From Acaryochloris thomasi RCC1774 (GTDB lineage Bacteria; Cyanobacteriota; Cyanobacteriia; Thermosynechococcales; Thermosynechococcaceae): a DNA stretch of 32,000 nt. Positions within the stretch are counted from its first letter, which is position 1. The number at the start of each line of letters is the position of its first letter. The position numbers were made by a program, and so were the translations under genes. Below the pieces are notes generated by a model that was not told the DNA's origin, did no database searches, and saw only the letters and a list, made by a program, of their open reading frames with translations. The stretch is taken from contig NZ_PQWO01000006.1 in the NCBI RefSeq assembly GCF_003231495.1, positions 90,001-122,000 of the forward strand, read 5' to 3'. Of this stretch, positions 3,451-19,327 are shown piece after piece.

Positions 3451-4095
3451 TTAGAACGAAATTTGAGGTGCGTTCTGCATTTCTGGCGTAGCGATATCTA
3501 GCAGCTGAGCCGCCTGAAAGTTAAAGGTGTTCGCAATCAGACTACTTGGGAACACTTCGCGCTGTGTGTTGTAGAGTGTCACGCCGTCATTAAAAGCCTG
3601 TCGCGCGAAGGAAATGCGATTTTCCGTCGAGCGTAACTCCTCTGAGAGTTCAGACATCGATTTCTCCGCCTTTAGATCAGGGTAGGCTTCTGAAAGGGCA
3701 AAGAGCTTGCCTAGCGTACCGCCTAACGCCGCCTCTGCAGCCCCTAGCTGCGCCATTGCCTGCGGATCACCGGGTGCCTGAGCCGCCTGACGACTCGCGC
3801 TCATGGCTGAATTGCGGGCCTGAATGACAGCCTCTAGCGTCTCCCGCTCATGCTTCATGTATCCCTTAACCGTTTCCACGAGGTTAGGAATTAGGTCATA
3901 GCGACGTCTAAGCTGGACATCAATTTGGGCATAGGCGTTTTGGTAGCGATTCCGCAGTGTCACCAAACGGTTGTAAGCGTTGATCACAATCATGATCAAC
4001 ACTGCCGCAAAAACAACAAGAATAATCAGAATACCCATAGCAAGGATTAAAAACCGGACAAATTGAGGACATCTACTGCTATATAGTTCCCGCAT
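3451..4095 (-). CDS. lemA: LemA family protein
   Basis: N-terminal TM helix followed by YNRLVTLRNRYQNAYAQIDVQLRRRYDLIPNLVETVKGYMKHE, the LemA signature region. The true start may be an internal Met (MGILIIL). Confidence 0.9.
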   Translation of the reverse strand: MRELYSSRCPQFVRFLILAMGILIILVVFAAVLIMIVINAYNRLVTLRNRYQNAYAQIDVQLRRRYDLIPNLVETVKGYMKHERETLEAVIQARNSAMSASRQAAQAPGDPQAMAQLGAAEAALGGTLGKLFALSEAYPDLKAEKSMSELSEELRSTENRISFARQAFNDGVTLYNTQREVFPSSLIANTFNFQAAQLLDIATPEMQNAPQISF

Positions 4096-4415
4096 TCTGT
4101 CTTCAAATCACTTTTGAATCCAGTCTTCTTTGGCTAATAGGGAAAGAGAAGAGGCAGAAATAACATCAAAGTCTCTGTCTAAAAAGCTCAGGCGTTTGTT
4201 CTACTAAATTCTATGAATTTCCACTTGTCATATTCCCCGAGTCCCTAATTTTGCCCCTACTTTGACGGGGTGATTGGACTGACATGCTGGGTGAGCGTGA
4301 TTAAGCTTGGAAATGAGACAAGTAAGAGTCTTGCGTGCACAGGCAAGTTGACCAAGACACCTACAAAGCCAGCTTTGGTCTATCGTCTCTAACCCGACTG
4401 TTGGAGAAAGAACCC

Positions 4416-6017
4416 ATGAAACCCAACCTTGTAAGAACAACCGCACTCATTATCGGATTTGGAGTCATTAGCGCCATTTCCCCAGCTAAAGCTAGTCTTT
4501 CTCCTCAAAGTCTTGAAAACCAAGAGGAAAAAGCTTCGCTAGTGGTGGCACAGGCCACTAAAAAGCTTTCACCTGAACAGAAGAAGCGAAGAGCAGAGAA
4601 GCTCCGACGGCAGCGTCAAAAGAAGGCCAATGCACGCAAGCAGCAATCTCGGCAAAGACGACAACAGAATGCGAGTCAACGCCAGTCCAAGCGCCAAGCA
4701 GCGCAAAACCGTAGACAGCAACAAAATGCTGCAGAACGTCAGCGGAAGCTAAAGGCAATTCAAAAGCGACGACAGCAGCAAAATGTAGCTGAACGCCAGC
4801 AAAAGTTAAAGGCGATTCAAAAAAAGAAAGCCATAGAGCTGCAAAAAAAACAGAAGCAAAACGCGATTGAGCGTCAGCGGAAGCTAAAGGCGGTCCAGAA
4901 GCGGCGGCAGCAGCAAAATGCAGCTCAACGCCAGCAAAAGTTAAAGGCGGCTCAAAGACAGAAGACTATAGAGCTGCAAAAAAAGCAGAAGCAAAACGCG
5001 ATTGAGCGTCAGCGGAAGCTAAAGGCGGCTCAAAAGCGTCGGCAGCAGCAAAATGTAGCTGAACGCCAGCGAAAGCTAAAGGCGATTCAAAAAAAGAAGG
5101 CCATAGAGCTGCAAAAAAAGCAGAAGCAAAACGCGATTGAGCGTCAGCAGAAGTTAAAGGCGGTCCAGAAGAAACAGCCGCTTAATACCGTTAAACGCCG
5201 ACCCAAGCGCAAAGGTATTAAGGTGCAGCAGGCACGCCAACGGAAGCTACAGACAATCAAGAAAAACAACAAAAATCGGAAGCAGCTTCAGCCTGAGCGT
5301 GCATATAAACAACGGGCGATTCAAAAGCAACACCAGGATGCTCTTTGGAAGCAGCAGCGAAAGCATAAGGCCCACAGGCATTACAAGCGCTTGCAGGCCC
5401 AACGACGGAAGCAGCTTGCGTATCGCAAATATAAGCAAGACCATTATGATCGCCAGCTTACTCAGCAGCGATTAGCGTGGCAGCGAAAGCGTAGGCGCTA
5501 TCACCAGAGATGGCTAAAACAACAGAGACGAATTGAACAGGAACGTCGGCTAGATCGCATTGAAGCTCGACAGCGTAGAATCTACCGCAACTACGTCAGC
5601 AACTATAATCGCGATTATTGGAGGGACGCCACTTGGCGCAACCGTGACTACTGGGGCAATCGCGATTACTGGAGAGAGTCGGGCTATTGGCACGAGCGCG
5701 ACTACTGGCGGCAGCGTGGATATGTTTGGGACGATGTGTTGGCGAGACTCCTGCCTCGGTTAGTGGTTGGGTTGGTACAGGGAAACGTCAGCTCTGGTAA
5801 CTCTCCCTATCAATCAGCTGGCACTCTGTACAATCAGGGACCAGATATTCTCTCTTACAACGATTTGAGTCAGGCTTCTTGTGAACCGGGCAATGTTGTT
5901 ATCTTGTTGCCCAATCAGCAGGTCATGTGTGCTTATCCCACAGATTCCTATGTGCCTGGAACCTATCAAACAGCCGATTCTGACCTAGGCTTGATTCCTG
6001 CTGATGTTGAATATTAA
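4416..6017 (+). CDS. Secreted, extremely basic Q/K/R-rich tandem-repeat protein with an RDYW repeat block and a small C-terminal two-Cys domain; function unknown
   Basis: The ORF track starts at GTG 4335. ATG 4416, preceded by GGAGAAAG, gives a classical signal peptide (MKPNLVRTTALIIGFGVISAISPAKA/S). About 350 residues are composed almost only of Q, K, R, A, N, E, L and I. Five RDYW-like repeats follow, then a non-repetitive tail (SCEPGNVVILLPNQQVMCAYP). Confidence 0.7.
   Translation: MKPNLVRTTALIIGFGVISAISPAKASLSPQSLENQEEKASLVVAQATKKLSPEQKKRRAEKLRRQRQKKANARKQQSRQRRQQNASQRQSKRQAAQNRRQQQNAAERQRKLKAIQKRRQQQNVAERQQKLKAIQKKKAIELQKKQKQNAIERQRKLKAVQKRRQQQNAAQRQQKLKAAQRQKTIELQKKQKQNAIERQRKLKAAQKRRQQQNVAERQRKLKAIQKKKAIELQKKQKQNAIERQQKLKAVQKKQPLNTVKRRPKRKGIKVQQARQRKLQTIKKNNKNRKQLQPERAYKQRAIQKQHQDALWKQQRKHKAHRHYKRLQAQRRKQLAYRKYKQDHYDRQLTQQRLAWQRKRRRYHQRWLKQQRRIEQERRLDRIEARQRRIYRNYVSNYNRDYWRDATWRNRDYWGNRDYWRESGYWHERDYWRQRGYVWDDVLARLLPRLVVGLVQGNVSSGNSPYQSAGTLYNQGPDILSYNDLSQASCEPGNVVILLPNQQVMCAYPTDSYVPGTYQTADSDLGLIPADVEY
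4716..5172 (+). repeat. 135-bp (45-codon) in-frame tandem repeat, about 3.4 copies
   Basis: The string CAGAAGCAAAACGCGATTGAGCGTCAGC recurs at 4851, 4986 and 5121, exactly 135 bp apart. A more diverged copy starts near 4716. Hand comparison of copies 2 and 3 gives roughly 15 mismatches in 135 nt. Confidence 0.85.
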
Positions 6018-6104: not shown

Positions 6105-6818
6105 ATGCTAGGGTGTGGACAACGCATGGGGATCAATTCGCAATGGTGTCGCAACCCCCAATACTTATATTCGAGTGAGGTGGACTCTCCCGTGAGTGAT
6201 GGGCAACTGATGGCCGATAGCACCCTCCAGTTTCGCTGGATTGTCACGCTCAAGGAAAATTTAGAGATTCTGTTCGCCCAGCAATCTGACGTCTTTATTG
6301 CCGGAGATCTTTTATGGTATCCCGTAGAAGGCGATCATGAGCGTTGCCAAGCGCCAGATACGATGGTGGTTTTTGGTCGGCCCAAGGGTGAGCGCCGCGC
6401 TTATGAACAATGGGAAGAAATGGATATGCCGCCTCAGGTGGTGTTTGAGATTTATTCCTACAGCAATACTGTCAAAGAGATGACTCGTAAGCTCTTGTTC
6501 TATCAAGAGTTTGGGGTAGAAGAGTATTACGTGTACGACCCAGAGAAAAATGAACTCATGGGTGCAATTCGCAAAGAAAATACTTTGACAGAAATCGTAC
6601 AGATGCAGGGCTGGACCAGTCCTCGTTTAGGGATTCATTTTGAGATTACACCAGAGGCATTGGAAGTCTATACACCCAACGGAGAGAGATTCCTGACGCC
6701 CGTTGAGTTGGCCAGTCAGCGGGACCAAGAACGTCAGCGGGCTGATCAAGAGCATGATCGAGCGGAACGTTTAGCTAAGCGTCTGCAGGAAATGGGCGTA
6801 GATCCAAGCTCAATCTGA
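6105..6818 (+). CDS. Uma2 family (DUF820) putative endonuclease with a C-terminal coiled-coil tail
   Basis: SDGQLMADSTLQFRWI, then PDTMVVFG, PPQVVFEIYS and EFGVEEYYVYDP, match the PD-(D/E)xK-type Uma2 pattern that is abundant in cyanobacteria. The tail is charged (RDQERQRADQEHDRAERLAKRLQE). The start may be an internal Met. Confidence 0.8.
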   Translation: MLGCGQRMGINSQWCRNPQYLYSSEVDSPVSDGQLMADSTLQFRWIVTLKENLEILFAQQSDVFIAGDLLWYPVEGDHERCQAPDTMVVFGRPKGERRAYEQWEEMDMPPQVVFEIYSYSNTVKEMTRKLLFYQEFGVEEYYVYDPEKNELMGAIRKENTLTEIVQMQGWTSPRLGIHFEITPEALEVYTPNGERFLTPVELASQRDQERQRADQEHDRAERLAKRLQEMGVDPSSI

Positions 6819-7084
6819 GATCGGTCTCGCTTAAACGTGGCTCAACTATCTCTGTATATAGAGAGCAGGGCTGGCGTCAGAGGTGCGCACCAAAATATTT
6901 AAAGAGCTATTGTGGGGCTTAAAATGAGAGTCTTGTGCGTGGCTAGGCGACGTTACGTTCGCTGTCCTGAGTGTTGATCGATACCGAGTGCCTGCTTCAG
7001 TGCCTCATCAGTTTTATTCTCCCAGTCTGGATCCGAGATTTTGATTGTTACTTCGGGCGATCGGGTTCTAATCGGTTCATCTTG

Positions 7085-7426
7085 CTAGCTGGTGTAGTGT
7101 TCTGCTAGTTGTATCCAGAAACAGAATGATTGATCACCTGAGCTATCATGGCTTGCCACTTCTGACTCGATTTGCGTTCGCAGATCCTTGTTTGCTACGG
7201 ACCATGCATCAATTAGAACCATTCCATTTGATTCGTAGGTTTTACCTACCACGATTGTTCCATCGCTGTGGAGTTTGACTACGGCCTCAATGACAGCATT
7301 GATACTGTCTGACTCGATTCGAGCTGGGTTCTGTAATCTCGCGATCTGTACCATCCAGCCAAAATAGAGAATGTCATCTTCCATTTGACTTTTGATTTCA
7401 TCGATGAGTTGTTGATCAATGTTCAT
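7085..7426 (-). CDS. Hypothetical small acidic protein (113 aa)
   Basis: Clean ATG-initiated ORF, divergent from the SWIM operon across a 139-bp intergenic region. I recognised no motif. Confidence 0.5.
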   Translation of the reverse strand: MNIDQQLIDEIKSQMEDDILYFGWMVQIARLQNPARIESDSINAVIEAVVKLHSDGTIVVGKTYESNGMVLIDAWSVANKDLRTQIESEVASHDSSGDQSFCFWIQLAEHYTS

Positions 7427-7565
7427 GAATACTTCGATCTTTCAACATCAAGCCAGATAATGTCTAAATTAGGCGATGCCACACAACTCGCTATGCATTG
7501 ATGTGTAGTCGTTCTATAACCCTCAAGGCATACTGGTTGTAAGTTAGCTCATTAATTTTGCCTTA

Positions 7566-8903
7566 ATGCCGATCACCTGGACAACTGAACAAGTCCTTGC
7601 GCTTTCTCCAGATGCAAACTCGACCAAAAACGGTAAGAGTCTTGCTAATCTCAGCAAATGGCAAACCCTTGGCTGCACTGACAATGTCACCTGGGGCGAA
7701 TGCAAAGGCAGCGGCAAGAAGCCCTACCGTACCCAAATTGACCTGACAGAACCCGCCTTCCGCTGTAGCTGCCCGAGTCGAAAGTTCCCTTGCAAACACG
7801 CCTTGGCTCTCTTTCTGTTACTGGCAGGACAAGTGGACTCCTTTACAGAGCATAGTCCCCCCGACTGGGTGCAAGAGTGGTTAGGGAAAAGATCTCAAAC
7901 CACCCAAAAGAAACAAGAAAAACAAACTGCTACTCTTACCGACCCCGCTGCCCGAGCCAAGCGAGCGGAAAAGCGAGAAGCAAAGATCCAGGCGGGACTC
8001 GTTGATCTTGATCTGTGGTTGCGAGACCTAATTCGTCAAGGGCTCGCAACCGCTCAGAGTCAGCCCTACAGTTTTTGGGATCAGCCTGCAGCCCGAATGG
8101 TAGATGCCCAAGCCCCAGCGCTTGCCCGCCGCCTGCGAGAGATGGCAAGCCTGCCCCACGGCAGTACCAGTTGGCCCAGTCGATTGTTGGCGGAACTCGG
8201 TCAACTACATCTCTTGATTCAGGGCTATCAGCGGCAAGAGACTTTGCCCGAGGTTGTTGTGGAAGAGTTGCGATCGCAACTCGGCTGGACTCAAAAACAA
8301 GAGGAGCTGCTAGCGACTGCAAAACAACCCAAATCAGGCATTGAAACTGTTCGCGATACCTGGTCAGTCCTGGGGCTACGAACCTTTGAAGAAGATAACT
8401 TGAGGGTGCAGCGAGTTTGGCTACAGGGGAGTCAGGGGCGATCTGCCTTAATCCTCAGCTTTGCCTATGGCTCCAATCCCATAGATGTCAGCTTGATTCC
8501 AGGTACGGCGCTAAAGGCCGATCTGGTTTTTTATCCGGGACTGTATCCTTTACGAGCGCTGGTACAAAATCGCGGTGAAGCAAAATCCTTTTCGACGGGG
8601 CACGGTGCTACCGTTGCCGACGCGATGACGGCCTACGGCAGTGCGATGGCTCAAAACCCTTGGTTGCTAGAGTTCCCGTTGCTGTTGCAAGATGTTGTCC
8701 CTTGTCTCCAGGACTCTGAATTATATCTACGAGATCTCGATGGGCATCAGCTTTCCGTGAGCTCGTCCTTCACCAAACAATGGGAAATGCTCGCCTTCAG
8801 TGGTGGACATCCCCTTACGCTCATGGGGGAGTGGAATGGACAAACGTTATTTCCTTTGAGCGTGTGGGCTGAAGATCGCTTTATGGCATTGGGGGCGCAA
8901 TGA
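7566..8903 (+). CDS. SWIM zinc-finger domain protein
   Basis: CxC-x7-CxH SWIM signature (FRCSCPSRKFPCKHALALFLL) near residue 66. The N-terminus MPITWTTEQVLALSPD...WGECKGSGKKPYRTQIDL is as I recall for SWIM proteins of MoxR-associated clusters. The stop overlaps the next start (ATGA at 8900-8903). Confidence 0.85.
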   Translation: MPITWTTEQVLALSPDANSTKNGKSLANLSKWQTLGCTDNVTWGECKGSGKKPYRTQIDLTEPAFRCSCPSRKFPCKHALALFLLLAGQVDSFTEHSPPDWVQEWLGKRSQTTQKKQEKQTATLTDPAARAKRAEKREAKIQAGLVDLDLWLRDLIRQGLATAQSQPYSFWDQPAARMVDAQAPALARRLREMASLPHGSTSWPSRLLAELGQLHLLIQGYQRQETLPEVVVEELRSQLGWTQKQEELLATAKQPKSGIETVRDTWSVLGLRTFEEDNLRVQRVWLQGSQGRSALILSFAYGSNPIDVSLIPGTALKADLVFYPGLYPLRALVQNRGEAKSFSTGHGATVADAMTAYGSAMAQNPWLLEFPLLLQDVVPCLQDSELYLRDLDGHQLSVSSSFTKQWEMLAFSGGHPLTLMGEWNGQTLFPLSVWAEDRFMALGAQ

Positions 8904-10471
8904 CTGGACCCTGGGAAACGTTAGTGGCCACGGCTTTGATGGGAACCGATCGCCCAACCCCTGACCTGTCTGGTTTTGACGGGGCATTGGGGCAGTTTTT
9001 GGAAAAGCTCGATGCCAGTGATGCTGAAGGTTTGATGCTGAGTATGGGAGGTGCGATCGCAACCTATACCCAAGCCGGTATTCAAGCCGCCAAGCACAGT
9101 GGGCCGATACCAGAACCCTGTGGCCCAGAAGTCTTACCGCGCTGTAGCAGCCTCAGTCGCCAGCACCTACAGCAAATCCTCAACGGTCCTCGTCAGCGAA
9201 TCTTGCCCGAATTTCTGGCGTATTTGCACACAGCAGGACAGCGCATTCCAGAAGAGCATCTGCCATCACTGCTGAATCTTGGACGCCAGCAGTCTCATCT
9301 TCGAGATGCGATTCAATCGGTGATCGGCAAGCGGGGACGTTGGCTGGCGGCTCATAACCCAGACTGGCGCTACGTCAGTGAAGAGGTTGCCGTCGCAGAT
9401 CTAGAAACCCTGCAAGAAAGTTGGGACACCGGCACCCTTGCTACTCGACTCACGGTTCTCCGCACGTTGAGAGAAACGTCACCTATCCAAGGACAAACCC
9501 TTTTAGAATTATCCTGGAAGCAGGAGAAAGCCAAGGATCGCACTGAATTCCTGAAGCTGTTCTTCACGGGTCTTAGCCCAGAAGATGAGCCATTTTTAGA
9601 AGCTGCTCTCGACGATCGCAGTAAAGACGTGCGGACTGTCGCCGCCGCCTTACTCACTCGTCTACCCGATTCTCAGCTTTGCCAAAGGATGATCGAGCGC
9701 ATCAAACCGCTCATCGATATTCAATCATCTGCCGAAGATCTAACGCTAAAAATCAAACTCCCTGAAGATCCTGACCCTGCAGCGATTCGGGACGGCATTG
9801 TTGCCACTAAAATGTACCGATTGGGGCAGCGAGCCAGCCTTTTGATGCAGCTTATCGGCGCAGTGCCGCTCCAGTTCTGGTCAGATCAAGCCCCTGTGGA
9901 GCAATTGATTCAGGCGGCGGGTCAACACAAATGGCAGGCTGGATTACTCAAGGGATGGGAGATTGCAGCCCAACGGCAGAACAATGCTCAATGGGGCCAA
10001 TCGCTCATTCATCACGCTCTCACTCAGGAGACCACCGTAGAGCAAGACTTGACCGATCTGTTAGCCATCCTGCCGATCTCAGAACGGGAAGCCTTGATGG
10101 TGCAGTGGCTCAATCAGCTTTGGTCTTCGGCCAAGCGCGAAGTTTGGCGAACAACCGTCGCTACGATTGCTCGGTCTGACCACTCTCCCACACTGGGCTT
10201 TAGTCGCTTCCTGTTTGCTGGCTTACAGGCTGATTTTATTGAGATGCAGTCATCATCTCAGGCGAAGGATTATCCTTATCAGTTGCGTGCCTACATTAGC
10301 GATCTGGCCTACTACCTTGACCCGCAGGTGGTCACTGAGTCTGACCTGCTGAAGGCGGCTCTGGAAGCTGACGATATCCATGCCTACCGCCGGGAGATTA
10401 TCGATGACTGGCTAGAGATCATTAACTTCCGCTTTGCCGTTCAACAAGCCTTTGCCCATCCTGATTCTTGA
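8900..10471 (+). CDS. HEAT-like helical repeat protein, DUF5691-like
   Basis: 523-aa ORF overlapping the upstream SWIM gene by 4 nt. It contains a HEAT-type motif (LEAALDDRSKDVRTVAAALLTRLPDS). The family name is assigned from memory of the SWIM/DUF5691/MoxR gene order and was not searched. Confidence 0.65.
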   Translation: MTGPWETLVATALMGTDRPTPDLSGFDGALGQFLEKLDASDAEGLMLSMGGAIATYTQAGIQAAKHSGPIPEPCGPEVLPRCSSLSRQHLQQILNGPRQRILPEFLAYLHTAGQRIPEEHLPSLLNLGRQQSHLRDAIQSVIGKRGRWLAAHNPDWRYVSEEVAVADLETLQESWDTGTLATRLTVLRTLRETSPIQGQTLLELSWKQEKAKDRTEFLKLFFTGLSPEDEPFLEAALDDRSKDVRTVAAALLTRLPDSQLCQRMIERIKPLIDIQSSAEDLTLKIKLPEDPDPAAIRDGIVATKMYRLGQRASLLMQLIGAVPLQFWSDQAPVEQLIQAAGQHKWQAGLLKGWEIAAQRQNNAQWGQSLIHHALTQETTVEQDLTDLLAILPISEREALMVQWLNQLWSSAKREVWRTTVATIARSDHSPTLGFSRFLFAGLQADFIEMQSSSQAKDYPYQLRAYISDLAYYLDPQVVTESDLLKAALEADDIHAYRREIIDDWLEIINFRFAVQQAFAHPDS

Positions 10472-10489
10472 CCGGAGACTAAATCCACG

Positions 10490-11596
10490 ATGCCCGCCAA
10501 AACCAAAAAGCAAGCCACCGATGCGGTTTTACGCCAACATGCTGAACAGCAGTTTGCCCATGAACTTGAAGAGCTAGCGAAGGCCGATACGCGCCAGCGA
10601 CCGCCAAACTGGAAGCTTTCCCCCTGGGCGGTGGCAACTTATCTGCTGGGCGGAACCTTAGAGAATGGGTTTGAGGTGAGTCCGAAATACATTGGTAATC
10701 GGAGGCTGATGGAGATTGCGATCGCAACTCTAACCACCGACCGCGCCCTTCTTTTGTACGGCGTCCCCGGCACCGCTAAATCCTGGGTCTCTGAGCACTT
10801 AGCGGCAGCGATAACAGGCGACTCCACACTGTTAATTCAAGGCACCGCAGGCACCAGCGAAGAAGCAATCCGCTACGGCTGGAACTATGCTCAACTGCTT
10901 GCCAAAGGCCCATCGCCTGCCGCCGTGGTTCCCAGCCCCTTGATGAACGCAATGGAGCTAGGCAAGATCGCCAGGGTCGAAGAGCTGACCCGCATCCCTG
11001 CCGAAGTGCAGGACACGCTGATTACTGTTCTGTCGGAGAAGGCCCTCCCCATCCCTGAACTAGGCACCGAAGTCCAAGGGAATCAGGGCTTCAATGTAAT
11101 CGCCACCGCCAACAACCGCGACAAAGGCGTCAATGATTTATCCAGCGCCCTCAAGCGTCGCTTTAACACCGTTATCTTGCCCGTTCCCGGCACCGCCGCC
11201 GAAGAAGTCAATATCGTTCAGCAGCGAGTGGCATCGCTGGGGAAAGCTCTTGATTTACCGCCAGAAGCTCCAGCATTAGAAGAAATTCGGCGGGTGGTCA
11301 CGATCTTCAGAGAACTACGGAACGGTGCCACCGAAGACGGTAAGACGAAGCTTAAGTCTCCCAGCAGCACCCTCAGCCCCGCAGAGGCCATTTCAGTGGT
11401 CAATAGTGGTGTGGCTCTGGCGGTCCACTTTGGCGATGGCGCATTGCAGGCCAGCGATATGATGGCCGGTTTGGTTGGTGCCGTAGTCAAAGACCCGGTG
11501 CAGGACCAAGTGGTCTGGAAAGAGTACCTTGAAACCGTCGTCAAAGAACGAGAAGGCTGGAAAGATCTGTACCGAGCCAGTCGTGAAGTGCTGTGA
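10490..11596 (+). CDS. MoxR-like AAA+ ATPase (AAA_5 / dynein-related subfamily)
   Basis: Walker A LLLYGVPGTAKS. Walker B region IARVEELTRIPAEVQDTL, with E-E where MoxR has D-E. Sensor-1 VIATANNRD and Arg-finger region SALKRRF. The gene starts 18 nt after the previous gene, preceded by GGAGA. Confidence 0.85.
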   Translation: MPAKTKKQATDAVLRQHAEQQFAHELEELAKADTRQRPPNWKLSPWAVATYLLGGTLENGFEVSPKYIGNRRLMEIAIATLTTDRALLLYGVPGTAKSWVSEHLAAAITGDSTLLIQGTAGTSEEAIRYGWNYAQLLAKGPSPAAVVPSPLMNAMELGKIARVEELTRIPAEVQDTLITVLSEKALPIPELGTEVQGNQGFNVIATANNRDKGVNDLSSALKRRFNTVILPVPGTAAEEVNIVQQRVASLGKALDLPPEAPALEEIRRVVTIFRELRNGATEDGKTKLKSPSSTLSPAEAISVVNSGVALAVHFGDGALQASDMMAGLVGAVVKDPVQDQVVWKEYLETVVKEREGWKDLYRASREVL

Positions 11597-11676
11597 TGGC
11601 GGACGGGCTTCATGAAGCCAAGATCAAATCTCCAATGCTAGGTTCATTTTCGCCTCAGGCAGGACCTTTATTCTAA

Positions 11677-11715
11677 AAACACTGAGGTTAGAGAAGTTGC
11701 ACATCTTCAGTGTTT
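11677..11715 (+). other. Stem-loop downstream of the AAA+ gene (possible transcript-end or stabilising hairpin)
   Basis: AAACACTGAGG (11677-11687) pairs with CTTCAGTGTTT (11705-11715). That gives 11 bp with one G-U pair and a 17-nt loop. No T-tract follows. Confidence 0.3.
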
Positions 11716-11808
11716 GAAAGGCTCACAACTGATTCATTGCTCTTGGTGTGCATGTTGTCTGTCCCTGCTATTTGTTTAACAGATAGATATTGAGTTCAGG
11801 TAAATATT

Positions 11809-11955
11809 ATGGCCACTCGTATTAATCAAGCAACCGAAAAGTCCAACCCAGTTGCGCTAGAGAAGCAGGCTAACAGCGATCCTAAGGTTGAATATTGGGA
11901 TCAGTATTGCGGGCTACACGCTGAAAATGATGCCTGCCGTGTCTATGACGTTTAA
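11809..11955 (+). CDS. CP12 C-terminal-module mini-protein (48 aa), below the ORF-track length cutoff
   Basis: ATG 11809 to TAA 11953-11955 encodes MATRINQATEKSNPVALEKQANSDPKVEYWDQYCGLHAENDACRVYDV. The C-terminus (YC-x8-C-RVYD) matches the CP12 GAPDH-binding loop, as I recall it from Synechococcus CP12 (QQYCDDNPDAAECRIYDD). A terminator-like hairpin lies downstream. Confidence 0.6.
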   Translation: MATRINQATEKSNPVALEKQANSDPKVEYWDQYCGLHAENDACRVYDV

Positions 11956-12025
11956 TGCTTTGCGTAGTGCAGATTAGGATGCAAGATTCTTCTGGTCTGC
12001 GCTGCTTCAAATGATTCGCTAACTC

Positions 12026-12057
12026 AAAGACCCTCAATACTGAAGGTCTTTTTTTTG
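12026..12057 (+). terminator. Rho-independent terminator candidate
   Basis: AAAGACC (12026-12032) pairs with GGTCTTT (12045-12051) around a 12-nt loop, and the pairing runs into a T-tract ending at 12056. It lies 70 nt after the CP12-like stop. Confidence 0.5.
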
Positions 12058-12146
12058 CATCAGACTGATGCCGATCTACAAAAAGTGCTCTAGGAAGCTT
12101 ACGTAAATTTTGACTCTATTCCTAGTTATGGCTTTTTACGACTGTT

Positions 12147-12368
12147 TCAAGACGAATGAGGTAAGCCCACTCGATCCATAAAAGCGATCATCGCAGCATT
12201 GCTTTTTTCCCAAGCCTGGGGGTCGGTACTGGGGTCGTAGCGTCTACCCTCTGCAGCGCGACGCTTGAATTCTTCATAGAACAGCGGATCTTGGTGGCAA
12301 TATCCTTCCTCAAGCATTTCCCAGAATTCTTTCTCGGACAGATGTGTATAGTTGATGGCTTCAGACAT
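12147..12368 (-). CDS. Hypothetical small protein (73 aa), second gene of an overlapping pair
   Basis: ATG-initiated ORF whose start overlaps the stop of the upstream 96-aa ORF (ATGTCTGA, 8-nt overlap). The protein is acidic and helical. No motif recognised with confidence. Confidence 0.5.
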   Translation of the reverse strand: MSEAINYTHLSEKEFWEMLEEGYCHQDPLFYEEFKRRAAEGRRYDPSTDPQAWEKSNAAMIAFMDRVGLPHSS

Positions 12369-12651
12369 AGAACTGCCTCTCTAAAAATTCACCGTCAGAG
12401 TAAATGGTGTACCAGTAACGCCATTCGGGGTTTGTCCCTTGCTCAAATATAACGACTAGTTCCCCCCCTGGCAAAACGTCTATGAATCTCGCTTTCCATT
12501 GCTGAGGTAGCCGATATTGAAGAATCTCAAACAGCCGCTGGAGCTGAATGTTATTGGGTTGCATAGCAAAAATAGTGCAGTCTTGTGATGTCTCTGTGAG
12601 ATTGATAGCTACAATGTCACATTTAGTGCAATTTCCTTGCGGAAGAGCCAC
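12361..12651 (-). CDS. Hypothetical small protein (96 aa, or 67 aa from the internal Met), first gene of an overlapping pair
   Basis: ORF on the minus strand coupled to 12147..12368. An alternative start at MQPNNIQLQ would give a 67-aa product. Confidence 0.45.
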   Translation of the reverse strand: MALPQGNCTKCDIVAINLTETSQDCTIFAMQPNNIQLQRLFEILQYRLPQQWKARFIDVLPGGELVVIFEQGTNPEWRYWYTIYSDGEFLERQFYV

Positions 12652-12813
12652 CCGATGCAGAAGATGTCCTTTAATTATTGGGGTATCCTACCTTGACTCT
12701 GCTGAGGCCATAATTTTAAAAACTTTCGGAATTCAGATCTCACTAGAAGATTTACTGCCTGAAGCGCAGTCAGAACTCACGGTAAGCTAGACCCTGATGA
12801 CTGTTTATCGGAG

Positions 12814-13563
12814 ATGCGATCGCAAGTGGCTACAATTCGGTGCCAAGACCAGAGCTTTACTGATATTGAAGCCGTTATTTTTGACAAAGACGGAACCCTT
12901 GCAGATGTAGCATCTTTTCTTAAAAGTTTGGCCCAGAAGCGCTCTCGCTTAACCGATGCTCAGGTTCCTGGTGTGCAGGAGCCGCTGTTGTTGGCCTTCG
13001 GTGTCGAAGAAGGACAGCTCAATCCAGCCGGACTGCAGGCTGTGGGCAGTCGGCGTGAGAATGAAATCGCTGCTGCCGCCTACATTGCAGAAACAGGAAA
13101 AAATTGGAACGCAGCCCTTGATATTGCTCAATCAGCCTTTGCTGAAGCTGACAGCTATCTTAAGCGTAAGGCTGACCATACCCCTCTGTTTCCAGGAACC
13201 CGTGAGGTTCTTCAGGCGTTGACTGCGGCGAAAGTCAAAATCGGCATTCTTTCAGCCGATATCCCCAAAAATATTGGTGATTTTATTGATTGCTACGAGC
13301 TAACATGCATTGACGCCTATCAAGGTGTAGAGGGCACAATCAGTAAGCCTGATCCACAACTCTATGAGCAATTGTGTACGCAACTAAAGGTTGCACCCGA
13401 GCGAACGCTGATGATTGGAGATGCTCAAGTCGATATGATTATGGCTCAATCAGCAGAAGCGGCGGGCTGTATTCAAGTCACCTGGGGCTGGCCTAACGCT
13501 AAATCTTATCCAGAAGCCCATGCTGTCATTGACCAGTGGCAGCATTTTCAGCTCGTGGCCTGA
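12814..13563 (+). CDS. HAD-superfamily hydrolase (phosphatase, subfamily IA-like)
   Basis: Motif I VIFDKDGTL (DxDGT) and motif IV MIGDAQVDMIMA, with a cap-domain insertion between them. Confidence 0.85.
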   Translation: MRSQVATIRCQDQSFTDIEAVIFDKDGTLADVASFLKSLAQKRSRLTDAQVPGVQEPLLLAFGVEEGQLNPAGLQAVGSRRENEIAAAAYIAETGKNWNAALDIAQSAFAEADSYLKRKADHTPLFPGTREVLQALTAAKVKIGILSADIPKNIGDFIDCYELTCIDAYQGVEGTISKPDPQLYEQLCTQLKVAPERTLMIGDAQVDMIMAQSAEAAGCIQVTWGWPNAKSYPEAHAVIDQWQHFQLVA

Positions 13564-13666
13564 ACCAAATGACTTGATTGTCGTCACGGTATCCTCAGTG
13601 GCGCAGTATCTGGATGCTATAATCGCTTGAATTTAGTGCCGTCTGCTGACTCGACCTACATGGAGG

Positions 13667-14938
13667 GTGAATACCTTGTCGAAACGTTATCTCTTCACTT
13701 CAGAATCTGTCACGGAAGGCCATCCTGATAAGGTCTGCGATCAAATTTCTGACACAATTTTAGATGCACTGCTCGCTCAGGATCCGATGAGCCGAGTCGC
13801 AGCGGAAACGGTGGTGAACACAGGTTTAGTTTTAGTCACCGGGGAAGTCACAACCAAAGCTGACGTCAACTTCGTTAAGTTAGTGCGTGAGAAGATCACT
13901 GAAATTGGCTACACCGACTCAGACAACGGCTTTGCCGCCAATAGCTGTTCTGTTTTAATTGCGCTTGATGAGCAGTCCCCAGATATCGCCCAGGGGGTCG
14001 ATGCAGCGCAAGAAACCCGCGAACAGAAAAGCGACGAAGAGCTTGATTCCATCGGTGCAGGCGACCAGGGGCTCATGTTTGGCTATGCCTGTAATGAAAC
14101 ACCAGAATTGATGCCGTTGCCCATCAGCTTAGCCCACCGCATTACGCGCCAATTAGCGGCTGTTCGCAAGCAAGGCAAGCTTCCCTACTTACGTCCTGAT
14201 GGCAAGTCTCAAGTGAGCGTCGCTTACGAAGATGGACAGCCCGTCGGAATTGATACGATTCTCATTTCGACTCAGCATGACGCCACAATTGAAGAGATTC
14301 GTGAACCCAGCGCAGTGCGAGATCGCATCCAGGCTGATCTTTGGGAGCATGTGGTGCTGCCGATTTTTGCTGATCTAGATCTAAAGCCTGATGACGATAC
14401 CCGCTACCTTGTCAATCCCACCGGCCAGTTCGTGATTGGCGGTCCCCAAGGAGATGCGGGACTCACCGGGCGCAAAATTATTGTGGATACTTACGGCGGC
14501 TACTCTCGCCACGGCGGCGGTGCCTTCTCCGGCAAAGATCCCACGAAGGTTGATCGCAGTGCCGCCTACGCCAGTCGCTATGTCGCTAAAAATATTGTCG
14601 CGGCCGGGTTGGCCGATAAGTGTGAAGTGCAGGTGAGCTACGCCATCGGAGTTGCTCGTCCTACCAGTATTCTGATTGAAACTTTTGGCACTGGCAAGGT
14701 GGATGAAGAACGGCTGCTAGAGGTTGTGCAAACGCATTTTGACCTCCGGCCTGCGGGGTTAATTCAGGCGTTTGATTTAACCCATCTTCCTCAGGAACGA
14801 GGGGGACGGTTCTATCAAGATGTTGCGGCCTATGGTCACTTCGGTCGCGCCGACCTTGATTTACCTTGGGAGAAAACAGATAAAGCTGACGCTTTGAAGC
14901 AGGCTCTCAGTCCAGCGATGGCAGGGGCTGCAGGGTAA
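13667..14938 (+). CDS. metK: S-adenosylmethionine synthetase
   Basis: [34 protein letters not shown] and [19 protein letters not shown] are diagnostic. The ORF track starts at GTG 13667. TTG 13676 ([11 protein letters not shown]), about 8 nt after GGAGGG, is an equally plausible start. Confidence 0.97.
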
Positions 14939-15017
14939 GTCGCCTTAGCTTCTCTTCAGTTCGAGGCAGATTCCTTCTTTCTTTAATGTGAAGTGAGGTA
15001 GGTTTGCCATAATGTAA

Positions 15018-15503
15018 ATGTTGGCTCTGAAGAGAGGCTACAGCATGACCTCGCTAGTTATACCAAAGTTTGAGGCCAAGCAAGTGGGGCAAGTCATTGC
15101 CACAATCAAGGTTGCAAACCGGATTGATCAAGTTATGGCTGAGCGAGGGTTTATCTCTACAGCCGAGGTTCGTTCATTCGTTTTGAATGATGTTCTGGTC
15201 GATACTGGAGCGACATTGCTCGGCCTACCAACCCCCGTTATTGAATCACTGGGACTCGTTCGGGGTAGCTCTACTGGTGTTGAAACAACCGCCGGAATTC
15301 AGCAGGGTTGGATTTTTCGAGATGTTGATCTAGAAATTTCAGGTCGTCGAGGAACCTTTGATTGTCTAGAACTCACAAATGTTAACTATGCTCTTTTGGG
15401 TGTTACGCCGATGGAAATTTTGGGATTGGAGCCAGATTTCCAAAACCAGAAGCTGCGAGTGTTGCCGATGACTTCTGAGCAGACTTACCTCAGTGTTCTG
15501 TAG
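15018..15503 (+). CDS. Clan AA (retropepsin-like) aspartic protease
   Basis: Active-site motif VLVDTGATLLGLP within a protein of about 150 aa, typical of bacterial retropepsin-like proteins. An alternative start is at ATG 15045. Confidence 0.7.
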   Translation: MLALKRGYSMTSLVIPKFEAKQVGQVIATIKVANRIDQVMAERGFISTAEVRSFVLNDVLVDTGATLLGLPTPVIESLGLVRGSSTGVETTAGIQQGWIFRDVDLEISGRRGTFDCLELTNVNYALLGVTPMEILGLEPDFQNQKLRVLPMTSEQTYLSVL

Positions 15504-16349: not shown

Positions 16350-18350
16350 GTGCTGTCGTCAGAGTCAAACACTATGGATATTTTTGTGAACGTCATTAGC
16401 AGTGCACAGTCAATACCAGCTGATCGTATCGAATATGGATATCTACCGACATATATACAAGATATTCAGCGAGCTTGGCGACTGGCGGAACAGCCGTATG
16501 ATAAAGATCCCAAGGGTGCCGTTGACGTAGCTCCTATTCCGGGTTGTGAGAAGCCAGCAGCTATTGCACTTCAGGTTCGATATGCCGCAACCCTCTCAGT
16601 CCTCAATAGCCTTGTTAGTCAAATTCCTGCGCCATTGATAGCAGCTCTCGTGACTCAGCGAATCTGGACATTAGAGCAAGCCTGGACTCTCATGGAGCAT
16701 TCTTCACCAAGAAAGCAGGTGGAGATTTTCGAATGCTTAGTAAATCATCTATCTGATGCTGAACAACACCCGGCACTGGCTGCTGTTCTGTCCGTTCATG
16801 ACGAATCGGCACGCGCTCGTATGTTGAGTTTGCTAGCCCCGGTTCTGTCTGAAGCACTGTTGATCCAAGTATTAGAACACCTAGGGGAGCTGACATCGGA
16901 GCACTACCGTTCTCTGGTCCTCTGTCGTCTGAGCTGCTATCTCCCTTCTAGTCTTGTTCCACGGGTTATTAATCTCACCTATGAGATTAATAACCCGATT
17001 GACCGGCTGACTGTGTTGAGTTGTTGGGTACAGCGCCAAATATCACTGTTGCCTAAGATCTTCGCTGCTCTGAAGTTGATTCAAGAACCTCAGGTCTTGA
17101 GTCAGGTCCTCGCGACTATTGCTCCCCATCTGCCTGCTCACTTCGTACCTATCGCTATTCAGATGGCTCGAAGCGTTGATGAGCCAGAGGAGCGGTATGA
17201 CATTCTAAGCGCACTAGCCATCCATCATTCACCTTTGCAATCTGAAGTGCTAGAGCTGTCTAGCTATCTGGAAGATGAGTTCACACTCGCCAATTCTCTT
17301 GCGAGCCTAGCGGCTGACGGTGCTTTTGAGACCAGTGAGGAGATATTAACGAGGATCAGTCAGATTGAAAATGAAGCCGCTCGAACCCTGGGCTTGAGCC
17401 TGGTTGCCCCACACCTGGCAAACGTGATTATGGCCGAGCTATTACAGGAGATACAGCGCCTGCAATCTGAACACCATCGCGTCCAGGTTTTCAAGAACAT
17501 TCCTCTGTCAGCCTCGATTATCCCGCAGGTGCTGCAAATGACTGCAGGTTTCAAGAATGCTGGAGCGCTTGCTACAGCTCTCAGTACTCTGGTGCCGGTT
17601 AAGCCCACCCTCATGCCAGAAGCACTGCAGGCAGCTCAACAGATTGAAGATTTACGCGTTCGAGCTAATGTCCTTGGGGAGATCGCGATTCATCAACCGA
17701 CCCTCTGGCCCACTGTCTTGGATGCCATTCGACAAATCCCTAGTGAGTTATCACGTGCGACAGTACTTCGACATCTGGCTCCCCACTTACCAGAGCTATC
17801 TATGGCATCTGCGCTCGATCTAGTTGCTGAAATATCAGAGTTGCCTGTGCGCGGTCAAGCTCTTAGCGGCTTGGCGATGTATCTACCCCAGCATCTCTTG
17901 GGGAGAGCGCTGACTCATGTTCTGGAGATTCCAGATTTGTCGGTCTTCGCTTCGATTGCACAACAGTTTGAGCCGACTCAAGTCGTGGCCCATCGCTGTA
18001 TCGATAGAGTTTCTGTGCTTAATGCATTAGCCTCCTATGTACCTGAAGAACTGCTAACGGAAAACGTTCAGATAACTGAGCAGATTGACGATCCAAAACT
18101 CCGTGCCCAAGCTTTAAGTGGACTACTGCCCCAACTCAATCTGAAACCAATCGATGCTGCTAAGCTAAGTGAGCGGCTGCACTGTCTAGCCTCTCGCTGC
18201 CACCAAGATTTCTTGGCGGATCTATTGAGGTTGGGACCAGCAATCGCCCATCTTGGTGGACCTGAGTGTTTATCGGAAATTGCTCAGCATCTGCAAACCC
18301 TAGAATCTCAGTGGGTGCAACGTTCTCTCTTGAGGCCTCAATTAAAATAA
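16350..18350 (+). CDS. Helical tandem-repeat protein (about 14-15 units of about 31 aa, R-x-x-x-L-x-x-L-A-P-h-L-P type); function unknown
   Basis: Recurring units include ARARMLSLLAPVLSEALL, SQVLATIAPHLPAHFV, ARTLGLSLVAPHLANVI, RATVLRHLAPHLPELSM, RGQALSGLAMYLPQHLL, RVSVLNALASYVPEELL and RAQALSGLLPQLN. The track start is GTG 16350. ATG 16374 (MDIFVNV) is more likely. Confidence 0.75.
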   Translation: MLSSESNTMDIFVNVISSAQSIPADRIEYGYLPTYIQDIQRAWRLAEQPYDKDPKGAVDVAPIPGCEKPAAIALQVRYAATLSVLNSLVSQIPAPLIAALVTQRIWTLEQAWTLMEHSSPRKQVEIFECLVNHLSDAEQHPALAAVLSVHDESARARMLSLLAPVLSEALLIQVLEHLGELTSEHYRSLVLCRLSCYLPSSLVPRVINLTYEINNPIDRLTVLSCWVQRQISLLPKIFAALKLIQEPQVLSQVLATIAPHLPAHFVPIAIQMARSVDEPEERYDILSALAIHHSPLQSEVLELSSYLEDEFTLANSLASLAADGAFETSEEILTRISQIENEAARTLGLSLVAPHLANVIMAELLQEIQRLQSEHHRVQVFKNIPLSASIIPQVLQMTAGFKNAGALATALSTLVPVKPTLMPEALQAAQQIEDLRVRANVLGEIAIHQPTLWPTVLDAIRQIPSELSRATVLRHLAPHLPELSMASALDLVAEISELPVRGQALSGLAMYLPQHLLGRALTHVLEIPDLSVFASIAQQFEPTQVVAHRCIDRVSVLNALASYVPEELLTENVQITEQIDDPKLRAQALSGLLPQLNLKPIDAAKLSERLHCLASRCHQDFLADLLRLGPAIAHLGGPECLSEIAQHLQTLESQWVQRSLLRPQLK

Positions 18351-19327
18351 GTCTTATACTTTTTGTAGAGCTTAAGGCCAGGAATCGGCTGCTTAAAGGT
18401 CTTAGGGTAACGATACCTGCGGTCCATATATTCCTCTTGCAGGTGACGAATCGCTAGATAATTCTCGTACCATTGCTCAAGAAGAACGACAAGAGCCTGA
18501 AATTTTGGATAAGCTAACTTGTACTTTTCACTTAGGGCAGCGTACTGCAGTAAAATGCCGTAGGCTTTTGTACTGTGGAGAGTGGTCGGTAGCGCAATAA
18601 CCTGCGCCATTTTTTCAAAGGTCTCGTAGTTTGCGATAACTTCGCCATTCAAGTATGCGCGATCTAATAAATCAGTTCTCTGGAGCTGGTCAATAATGGC
18701 AGAGATTGTTCTCAATATAGAGAAATCGGTTAGCTGGTGCTGCTTGAATGAGCATAGCAGTTGAAAGCTGAGGGGATGGTTTGCAACAACTCTCAAGTGC
18801 TTGAAATAGGACTGTAAAGCTGTTTTGCCTTCAGACGTCCGCATTTGGGTGATTGTCTGGCCATATTGTTGCTGTACTGAATCGATAAATTCAATGGGCG
18901 ATAAATGGGCTGGATAAAGGGATTCAATAAACCGATAAAACTCGGACTGTTTAGTGCTGTGATGCCCAAATTCAATACTTTCAATGCCCAGGAAAGCAGT
19001 TTTCGCCTTGATCCCAGCCATTAATAGGTCGATATAGGCGTCTAAATTCTCATAACTCGAATTTCCTACAGCGAGATCTCGCTTCATGCGCACAAATGCA
19101 AGAAACTCTTGATTTCCGAATTTGTCTCGATCGATGGCGTTGGCTCGAACTAGCAATGCTTCAATATTTCTGAAATGCCGATCGTATAGGTGAATTGCAT
19201 TCTCTGGAACAGCTTCCTTCTGAAAGCTTTTGTAGAAGGCTGATATCTGTTCGACCATGCTTTGATTGCCAATGAGTGGCCGATTCCACCAAGGCTTTTT
19301 CTGCTTTAGGTTTTGTAAGACTGCCAT
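18338..19327 (-). CDS. Hypothetical protein (329 aa), A+T-rich gene
   Basis: Long uninterrupted ATG-initiated ORF, predicted all-helical, with no motif recognised. Its 3' end overlaps the convergent repeat-protein gene by 13 nt. Confidence 0.6.
   Translation of the reverse strand: MAVLQNLKQKKPWWNRPLIGNQSMVEQISAFYKSFQKEAVPENAIHLYDRHFRNIEALLVRANAIDRDKFGNQEFLAFVRMKRDLAVGNSSYENLDAYIDLLMAGIKAKTAFLGIESIEFGHHSTKQSEFYRFIESLYPAHLSPIEFIDSVQQQYGQTITQMRTSEGKTALQSYFKHLRVVANHPLSFQLLCSFKQHQLTDFSILRTISAIIDQLQRTDLLDRAYLNGEVIANYETFEKMAQVIALPTTLHSTKAYGILLQYAALSEKYKLAYPKFQALVVLLEQWYENYLAIRHLQEEYMDRRYRYPKTFKQPIPGLKLYKKYKTYFN

Follow-up and report, generated by a model that had tools for sequence, protein, structure and literature searches.

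This study concerns three co-directional genes in a 32-kb stretch of DNA (hereafter the window) from the cyanobacterium Acaryochloris thomasi RCC1774, which encode a SWIM zinc-finger protein, a DUF5691 protein and a MoxR-family AAA+ ATPase with an AAA_5 domain. We consider it likely, at a probability of roughly 0.7, that these genes form the SWIM-DUF5691-AAA_5 half of a five-component MoxR/vWA system of the YehL type, the other half of which, C1752_03180-03181, lies on another contig of this genome. The locus is nothing out of the ordinary: it belongs, in split form, to the known YehL-type module of five genes, which is functionally uncharacterised, and it is not a new minimal system. An earlier note on the window, made from its letters alone, had seen in the three genes an operon with no vWA partner at its end, and had offered two alternatives, a minimal three-gene version or partners encoded elsewhere. 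It is the second that holds, and the MoxR ATPase seemed to lack a vWA partner because the view was limited to 32 kb. All coordinates below refer to the window unless another locus is named, and features lie on its plus strand unless stated otherwise.

Both partner genes are encoded on a second contig

A search with the VWA protein of L001, a locus that carries all five genes together, identified protein P0244, i.e., C1752_03181, a VWA_CoxE protein of 387 amino acids that is encoded on a 226-kb contig of A. thomasi. It is 94% identical to the L001 copy, and the DxSxS motif of its metal-ion-dependent adhesion site (MIDAS) is intact. The same contig encodes C1752_03180 (P0361), a protein of 814 amino acids with a full-length match to Pfam DUF5682 (E 2.5e-284) and 84% identity to the L001 copy over its full length. 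The idea that A. thomasi has no DUF5682 protein was rejected, the protein having been concealed in a 90%-identity cluster (P0123) of which P0361 is a member. All five protein families are encoded in this genome, three of them in the window and DUF5682 and VWA_CoxE elsewhere, and the search for the two partners that the earlier note had proposed found both.

That C1752_03180 and C1752_03181 form an adjacent DUF5682-VWA pair is indicated by their consecutive tags and their common contig. Among relatives whose DNA covers this pair, the closest is the metagenome-assembled genome (MAG) P01_A01_bin.17 (L091), with at least 90% identity between its DUF5682 protein and that of A. thomasi. Here, too, the DUF5682-VWA pair stands alone, and it is preceded by a gene for an AMP-binding enzyme. 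Two further related MAG contigs show one half each: L090 has SWIM-DUF5691-AAA_5 only, followed by an unrelated cadherin-repeat gene, and L089 has the DUF5682-VWA pair only. DUF5682 and VWA thus remain together where the system splits (L089, L091). The remote VWA protein of A. thomasi is conserved to a similar degree as the ATPase of the window (94% and 96% identity to L001, respectively), which fits with the two proteins still working together.

Five genes in one operon as the rule

The closest five-gene relative for which DNA is available is a metagenome contig (L001/L002) on which the genes for SWIM, DUF5691, AAA_5, DUF5682 (805 amino acids) and VWA_CoxE (387 amino acids) are tightly packed. 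The A. thomasi SWIM, DUF5691 and AAA_5 proteins share 84%, 75% and 96% identity with those of L001, next to the 84% and 94% for the remote DUF5682 and VWA proteins, and the same five genes occur in a distant Chloroflexi genome.

A scan of species-representative genomes with the DUF5691 profile found relatives in at least 472 genomes, from many phyla. Eighty of these loci, plus loci from other look-ups, were classified with home-built hidden Markov models (HMMs), and a locus was regarded as informative if the ATPase was present and the flank was long enough to judge. DUF5682 lies downstream of AAA_5 in 58 of the 61 informative loci, and VWA is also present in 41 of those. Only at the window, L011 and L061 is DUF5682 absent within 8 kb or more. 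In another six loci no ATPase gene lies near DUF5691, for example in Acaryochloris marina, where DUF5682 is found alone at another place. The layout is dispersed in nine of the surveyed loci, and dispersal similar to that in A. thomasi is seen in A. marina and some Oscillatoriales. Because of this survey of classified loci, it can be said that SWIM-DUF5691-AAA_5-DUF5682-VWA is normally one operon and that it is occasionally dispersed in cyanobacteria. The context that the earlier note had given, SWIM/DUF5691/MoxR genes followed by DUF5682 and vWA genes, is therefore correct, and the three genes do co-occur in other genomes, for instance in L001 and L092. Set against the canonical operon, which is found in cyanobacteria, Chloroflexi, Planctomycetes, Acidobacteria and others, A. 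thomasi has orthologous proteins, with the first three genes in the same order and with the same coupling, whereas DUF5682 and VWA sit at a second locus, with a relic of just 60 nucleotides left in place.

L061, at 6840-12022, is a separate SWIM-DUF5691-AAA_5 locus in a marine MAG ('Cyanobacteria bacterium J06642_2'), with a DDE transposase directly upstream and housekeeping genes downstream.

These data bear on the possibility that SWIM, DUF5691 and MoxR constitute an autonomous minimal nucleoside triphosphatase system that has no vWA or DUF5682 partner. The absence of both partner genes from the 32-kb window would agree with such a system, as would the AAA_5 genes of L011 and L061, which also have no DUF5682 within 8 kb or more, and the same three-gene form in L090. 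However, the same genome carries an intact and highly conserved DUF5682-VWA pair, the VWA protein has been kept at 94% identity, which implies continued use, a DUF5682 relic remains in the window itself, and 58 of the 61 informative loci have DUF5682 downstream. This alternative is largely refuted, and we consider it extremely improbable. With it falls the claim that the operon ends without a vWA partner.

A DUF5682 relic downstream of the ATPase gene

The DNA similarity between the window and L001 ends seven bases past the stop codon of the ATPase gene and returns at 12633-12667, where 35 nucleotides are 83% identical (blastn, E 0.004). Translation of 12636-12695 gives LAEEPPDAEDVL, an in-frame stop and then LLGYPTL, as compared to LVEGPPDAEDVLKALGHPDL for codons 34-53 of the A. 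thomasi DUF5682 gene. In tblastn, 14 of the 20 residues of this stretch, which includes the in-frame stop, are identical to the DUF5682 proteins of L001 and P0361 (E 0.006-0.01). A six-frame profile search of the whole window for DUF5682 and VWA remnants returned only the short motif PPDAEDVL, with a non-significant score. The relic is supported by BLAST and by synteny, not by HMM, and the similarity alone is weak.

The synteny comes from L092, whose DUF5691 protein is 61% identical to that of the window. Its gene order is GT4 ... LemA ... SWIM-DUF5691-AAA_5, followed by a Gp49/helix-turn-helix (HTH) toxin-antitoxin pair, a minus-strand gene of 85 amino acids, DUF5682 and VWA. The blocks that are colinear between the window and L092 comprise GT4 (279-1496), LemA (3451-4033), the three genes (7526-11592) and a small minus-strand gene (12150-12564), the last of which is 78% identical to L092 13606-14020. 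In colinear position, the relic corresponds to codons 34-53 of the DUF5682 gene that L092 has kept in place. On this comparison, the A. thomasi ancestor is judged to have had DUF5682 at the spot of the relic, already set apart from the ATPase gene by inserted small genes, and VWA was presumably there as well. Because the relic sits where the syntenic L092 has an intact DUF5682 gene, the arrangement of three plus two genes is to be seen as secondary. The DUF5682-VWA pair may have reached the other contig by duplication and loss, or by rearrangement.

With respect to the small minus-strand gene, the minus strand at 12132-12651 holds two overlapping small open reading frames (ORFs) without a family match. 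One is C1752_02260, of 73 amino acids (12147-12368, minus strand), which by L092 synteny and protein cluster membership is a synteny marker and not a component of the system; the other encodes 96 amino acids. The similarity to L092 runs in one frame over 144 codons, which suggests either that the ancestral gene was longer and has since been truncated or that an upstream region is conserved.

Three intact genes under selection

Six predicted proteins of the window have exact matches at NCBI, C1752_02255 to 02260, on a 289-kb contig of A. thomasi RCC1774. The three genes in question have the layout that had been described before, co-directional with an ATGA stop/start overlap and an 18-nucleotide gap, and their coordinates are confirmed by the ORFs. 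Likewise, the assignments to SWIM, DUF5691 and AAA_5 were all borne out by Pfam.

The first gene (7566-8903; C1752_02256, identical to PZD73190.1) encodes a SWIM zinc-finger protein of 445 amino acids with a match to Pfam SWIM (PF04434, E 7e-7, 29 bits against a gathering cut-off of 19.6 bits) at residues 66-85. The finger itself, CSCPSRKFPCKH, is encoded at 7764-7799. It had been called canonical, with the spacing CxC-x7-CxH, but its spacing is CxC-x6-CxH (C67-S-C69-PSRKFP-C76-K-H78).

The second gene (8900-10471; C1752_02257, 100% identical to P0001) starts within the ATGA overlap at 8900-8903, which couples it to the first. Its product of 523 amino acids matches DUF5691 (PF18944) at E 3e-125 and 420 bits against a cut-off of 27 bits, covering profile positions 1-490 of 491. 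The AlphaFold2 model (predicted local distance difference test (pLDDT) 82, predicted template modelling score (pTM) 0.72) is helical throughout, i.e., an all-alpha HEAT/ARM-like solenoid, and the description of the middle gene as a helical, HEAT-type, DUF5691-like protein proved accurate. Foldseek searches with this model against the PDB gave only weak, generic HEAT/ARM matches (PP2A A subunit, beta-catenin, karyopherins), so that 'HEAT-like scaffold' is a fair label for the predicted fold and nothing more specific is supported. In three lineages, a member of the Chloroflexia, one of the Planctomycetota and an uncultured bacterium, the SWIM and DUF5691 proteins are fused in a single ORF of about 960-990 amino acids (L031 8579-11524, L034 1655-4531, L058 6622-9582). 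The ATGA coupling in the window and these single-ORF fusions elsewhere argue for a stable SWIM-DUF5691 complex.

After the gap of 18 nucleotides (10472-10489) follows the ATPase gene (10490-11596; C1752_02258), whose product of 368 amino acids matches Pfam AAA_5 (PF07728, E 3e-36). As had been noticed, Walker A, sensor 1 and the arginine-finger region are intact, which a motif alignment confirms. In an alignment of 73 ATPase orthologues from the fetched loci, Walker A, sensor 1 and the arginine finger are kept in 69-71 of the 73, and Walker A (GVPGTAKS, 10760-10783) is kept in 69 of 70. The Walker B region at 10967-10993 reads IARVEELTR and indeed has E-E, as the earlier note had remarked; it is, however, no oddity of this locus. 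The sequence R-V-E-E-L-T-R is near-invariant among the orthologues, E-E being present in 69 of 70, and Escherichia coli YehL has RFEEITR where the window has RVEELTR, which gives the pattern R-[VF]-E-E-[LI]-T-R. By its conservation, the E-E form of Walker B is a signature of the YehL subfamily and not a local degeneration or defect.

The coding sequence of the three genes, 4 kb in all, contains no stops or frameshifts. The ratio of nonsynonymous to synonymous substitutions (dN/dS) is 0.086 for SWIM, 0.11-0.13 for DUF5691 and 0.02 for the ATPase, and is the same whether the comparison is made to the unsplit L001 or to the split L090, with the caveat that dS is 1.1-1.8 and thus near saturation. 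Because of the open coding sequence and dN/dS values of 0.02-0.13, all three window genes are judged to be functional, and they are under strong purifying selection. This speaks to the question of whether the window holds a decaying remnant, in which a deletion broke the operon and the three genes are on the way to becoming pseudogenes. The downstream DUF5682 relic with its in-frame stop would be expected in that case, and the region between ATPase and relic is a hot-spot of insertion, with a mini-ORF here and the toxin-antitoxin pair in L092. Yet 4 kb of uninterrupted coding sequence, the low dN/dS also between the split lineages (window and L090), the fully intact catalytic motifs and the presence of full-length partners elsewhere in the genome make this very unlikely. 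A functional half of a split system remains the preferred explanation.

An insertion site between the ATPase and DUF5682 genes

The stop codon of the ATPase gene is followed by 212 nucleotides and then by an ORF of 48 amino acids at 11809-11955. The earlier note had spoken here of about 210 bp of structured non-coding DNA and an unrelated mini-ORF. The length is right, but the structure is not borne out: the predicted fold of 11597-11808 is only marginally more stable than that of shuffled sequences (z = -1.84, not significant), and Rfam gave no match in 7000-13000. As for the mini-ORF, it probably is no part of the system, as was said, but it is more than a mere ORF, being annotated as C1752_02259 and conserved together with its leader. 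The segment 11620-11960, consisting of a non-coding leader of about 190 nucleotides plus the ORF, is 75% identical over 347 nucleotides to L089 3534-3880, which is located about 1 kb upstream of the stand-alone DUF5682-VWA pair of that contig. Between the window and L089, conservation of the leader equals or exceeds that of the ORF.

UniRef lists C1752_02259 as 'CP12 domain-containing protein'. The mini-protein resembles the C-terminal Cys loop of CP12 (YC...DACRVYDV; profile positions 43-70) below threshold, with E 0.016 and 16.4 bits against a cut-off of 22.7 bits for both orthologues. Its role might be that of a small redox-type regulator; alternatively, the leader could be a conserved element of a 5′ untranslated region. 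No such mini-protein was found near the system in the other loci examined, nor in a metagenome search. In the window, the segment is an insert between the old operon halves, and we regard the mini-ORF as probably a passenger in a variable junction and not a system component. A hairpin with a T-run at 12026-12056, 3′ of the mini-ORF (AAAGACC...GGTCTTT TTTTT), was found by direct reading and looks like its terminator; a consensus terminator scan missed it, presumably since its loop of 12 nucleotides exceeds the accepted 3-8.

In cyanobacteria, insertions recur at the junction between ATPase and DUF5682. In L092 the junction holds the Gp49/HTH toxin-antitoxin pair (12823-13529), in L003 (Coleofasciculus) an FHA-domain gene and other inserts (11668-15300), and in L008, L014 and L068 there are gaps of 3-5 kb.

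A segment of the SWIM gene at 8259-8280 is a perfect reverse complement, over 21-22 nucleotides, of DUF5682 genes (L089 6286-6307, L091 2875-2895, L092 15494-15514). Pairing between the SWIM and DUF5682 mRNAs was rejected as an explanation, since both genes encode L-R-S-Q-L via the cyanobacterial HIP1 palindrome GTTGCGATCGCAAC.

Surroundings of the locus

The locus is flanked by housekeeping genes (metK, a HAD hydrolase gene and ureE). Within the 32 kb there is no DUF5682 or VWA gene except for the 60-nucleotide relic, such that the five genes are not contiguous here. Upstream, an ORF of 560 amino acids (4335-6017) consists mostly of K/Q/R-rich tandem repeats (QQNAAERQRKLKAIQKRR...) without a Pfam match, and its region has a strong AT skew of 0.23-0.32. 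It is followed by a gene for a putative endonuclease of the Uma2 family (6105-6818), which matches the PADLOC candidate PDC-S03 (E 2e-10) and is the sole hit to a defence catalogue close to the locus. Two ORFs further downstream, at 16350-18350 (plus strand, 666 amino acids) and 18338-19327 (minus strand, 329 amino acids), have no significant match in Pfam or PADLOC.

Relation to E. coli yehLMPQ and to other MoxR-vWA systems

MoxR ATPases are divided into seven to nine recognised subfamilies, for one of which YehL is the type member; as a group they are regarded as chaperone-like remodellers that act with vWA cofactors (PMC3893208; PMC11432383). In E. coli K-12, YehL has an AAA_5 domain, YehM is a DUF5682 protein (Pfam E 2e-98), YehP a VWA_CoxE protein (E 2e-72) and YehQ a SWIM-finger protein, and the gene for YehI (DUF4132) lies upstream of yehL-yehM-yehP-yehQ. 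The window ATPase is 39% identical to YehL over 353 aligned residues, i.e., full length (E 4e-76). Because yehL-yehM-yehP-yehQ is a permuted homologue, the window ATPase is assigned to the recognised YehL subfamily of MoxR.

The E. coli genes have four of the five families in common with the A. thomasi system, including the R-x-E-E-x-T-R Walker B, but their order is permuted, with SWIM last, and they are contiguous whereas those of A. thomasi occupy two loci. The SWIM proteins of the two organisms (YehQ in E. coli) are not alignable outside the finger, and comparison by hhalign with YehI (DUF4132) and YehQ gave no DUF5691 counterpart in E. coli. The yehL and yehM genes are silenced by H-NS (PMC3686432).

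The system resembles RavA-ViaA, CbbQ-CbbO, NorQ-NorD and CoxD-CoxE in combining a MoxR-family AAA+ ATPase with a vWA/MIDAS protein of a CoxE-like Pfam family. It differs from these characterised pairs in that it belongs to another MoxR subfamily, has three extra dedicated components (SWIM, DUF5691 and DUF5682) and comes without a known client. The ATPase does not fall into the CbbQ/NorQ/GvpN (CGN) subfamily, its score with NCBIfam GvpN being 26 as against 267 bits, and its match to NCBIfam MadB is far under the cut-off (45 as against 475 bits).

Does the module defend against phages?

The earlier note had suggested a conflict or defence-type role, and we therefore considered whether the five genes serve in defence against phages or in another kind of conflict, instead of in housekeeping remodelling. 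MoxR-vWA ternary systems have been proposed as conflict systems (PMC7159879), and several aspects of the genomic distribution can be read in this direction: the context varies among close relatives, which is weakly suggestive, one Leptolyngbya (L030) carries the module on a scaffold that is a plasmid, a transposase adjoins it in L061 and L005, and a toxin-antitoxin pair has been inserted in L092. The H-NS silencing of its E. coli counterparts is weakly suggestive as well. However, PADLOC contains no match for the SWIM, DUF5691, DUF5682 and VWA proteins, and the ATPase alone has a marginal hit to the P-loop of IetA. The match to the profile of bpMoxR (PF20030), the ATPase domain type of the MoxR-vWA-VMAP/beta-propeller ternary conflict systems, stays under its threshold (21.3 against 27 bits) and covers only 49 residues around the P-loop, and no effector-type domain (nuclease, protease, TIR, pore) was detected. 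Furthermore, the ATPase and the vWA protein are exceptionally conserved (96% and 94% at a dS of about 1), no phages and almost no plasmids carry the module, and the flanking genes here are of the housekeeping type. The suggestion has thus found no direct support in these tests, and we regard such a role as unlikely, though it is not negligible.

A possible mechanism

In the scenario that we favor, a YehL-type system divided between two loci, small genes were first inserted between ATPase and DUF5682 in the A. thomasi lineage. The DUF5682-VWA pair later came to be at the other locus, leaving behind the 60-nucleotide relic, and both halves are still intact and strongly conserved. By analogy to RavA-ViaA, CbbQ-CbbO, NorQ-NorD, CoxD-CoxE and midasin, the AAA_5 protein may assemble into a hexameric ring whose ATP hydrolysis would remodel a target protein or complex, the target being held via the MIDAS of the VWA_CoxE protein. 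A tight subcomplex of the SWIM protein with the HEAT-like DUF5691 protein might serve as scaffold or in substrate recognition, and DUF5682 would act together with the vWA protein.

Several points weigh against this interpretation. The adjacency of C1752_03180 and C1752_03181 is deduced from consecutive tags, a common contig and the layout of L091, and the joint working of the two halves from gene conservation, not from co-expression or interaction. Likewise, the E-E Walker B is judged intact by its conservation, and ATPase activity is a prediction. The mechanism is pure analogy: the searchable literature yielded no functional study of the YehL subfamily, DUF5691, DUF5682 or yehLMPQ, in line with the earlier note's remark that no function is established for this architecture, and the PDB contains no closely related solved homologue for any of the components.

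Among solved structures, the one that comes nearest to the ATPase in sequence is that of the AAA ring of midasin/Rea1 (E 5e-8), a protein whose AAA_5 modules, long helical region and MIDAS domain resemble the parts of the system. The module might therefore be a midasin-like bacterial machine made of separate proteins, with an AAA_5 ring, HEAT-like helical scaffolds and MIDAS/vWA, which would strip assembly factors from a large complex or mature it. Midasin, however, is a single eukaryotic polypeptide of about 4,900 residues with six AAA modules, its similarity to the ATPase extends over only some 70 AAA-core residues, and the likeness of the helical parts is one of general architecture. The AlphaFold2 model of DUF5682 is of low confidence (pLDDT 62), and a fold search with it returned only generic helical-repeat matches; the N-terminal 'GIRHHGPGS' region of this protein might conceivably be TraB/TIKI-like. 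We see the midasin-like version as quite unlikely. If it were true, the break points SWIM+DUF5691 / AAA_5 / DUF5682+VWA would mark subcomplexes, and the machine would be assembled from unlinked genes.

For the window alone, the significance of our finding is very small, as the vWA-less oddity vanishes at the scale of the genome. In a wider context, the split-locus reading places A. thomasi among the carriers of a strongly conserved MoxR/vWA module. This module was traced in at least 472 genomes at species level, is represented in E. coli K-12 by yehLMPQ, and has no reported function in the literature searched. The split layouts indicate that linkage of the five genes is not required. Together with the fused layouts, they hint at the organisation of the subunits, with SWIM going with DUF5691 and DUF5682 with vWA, and this layout evidence may prove useful for characterising the YehL subfamily.

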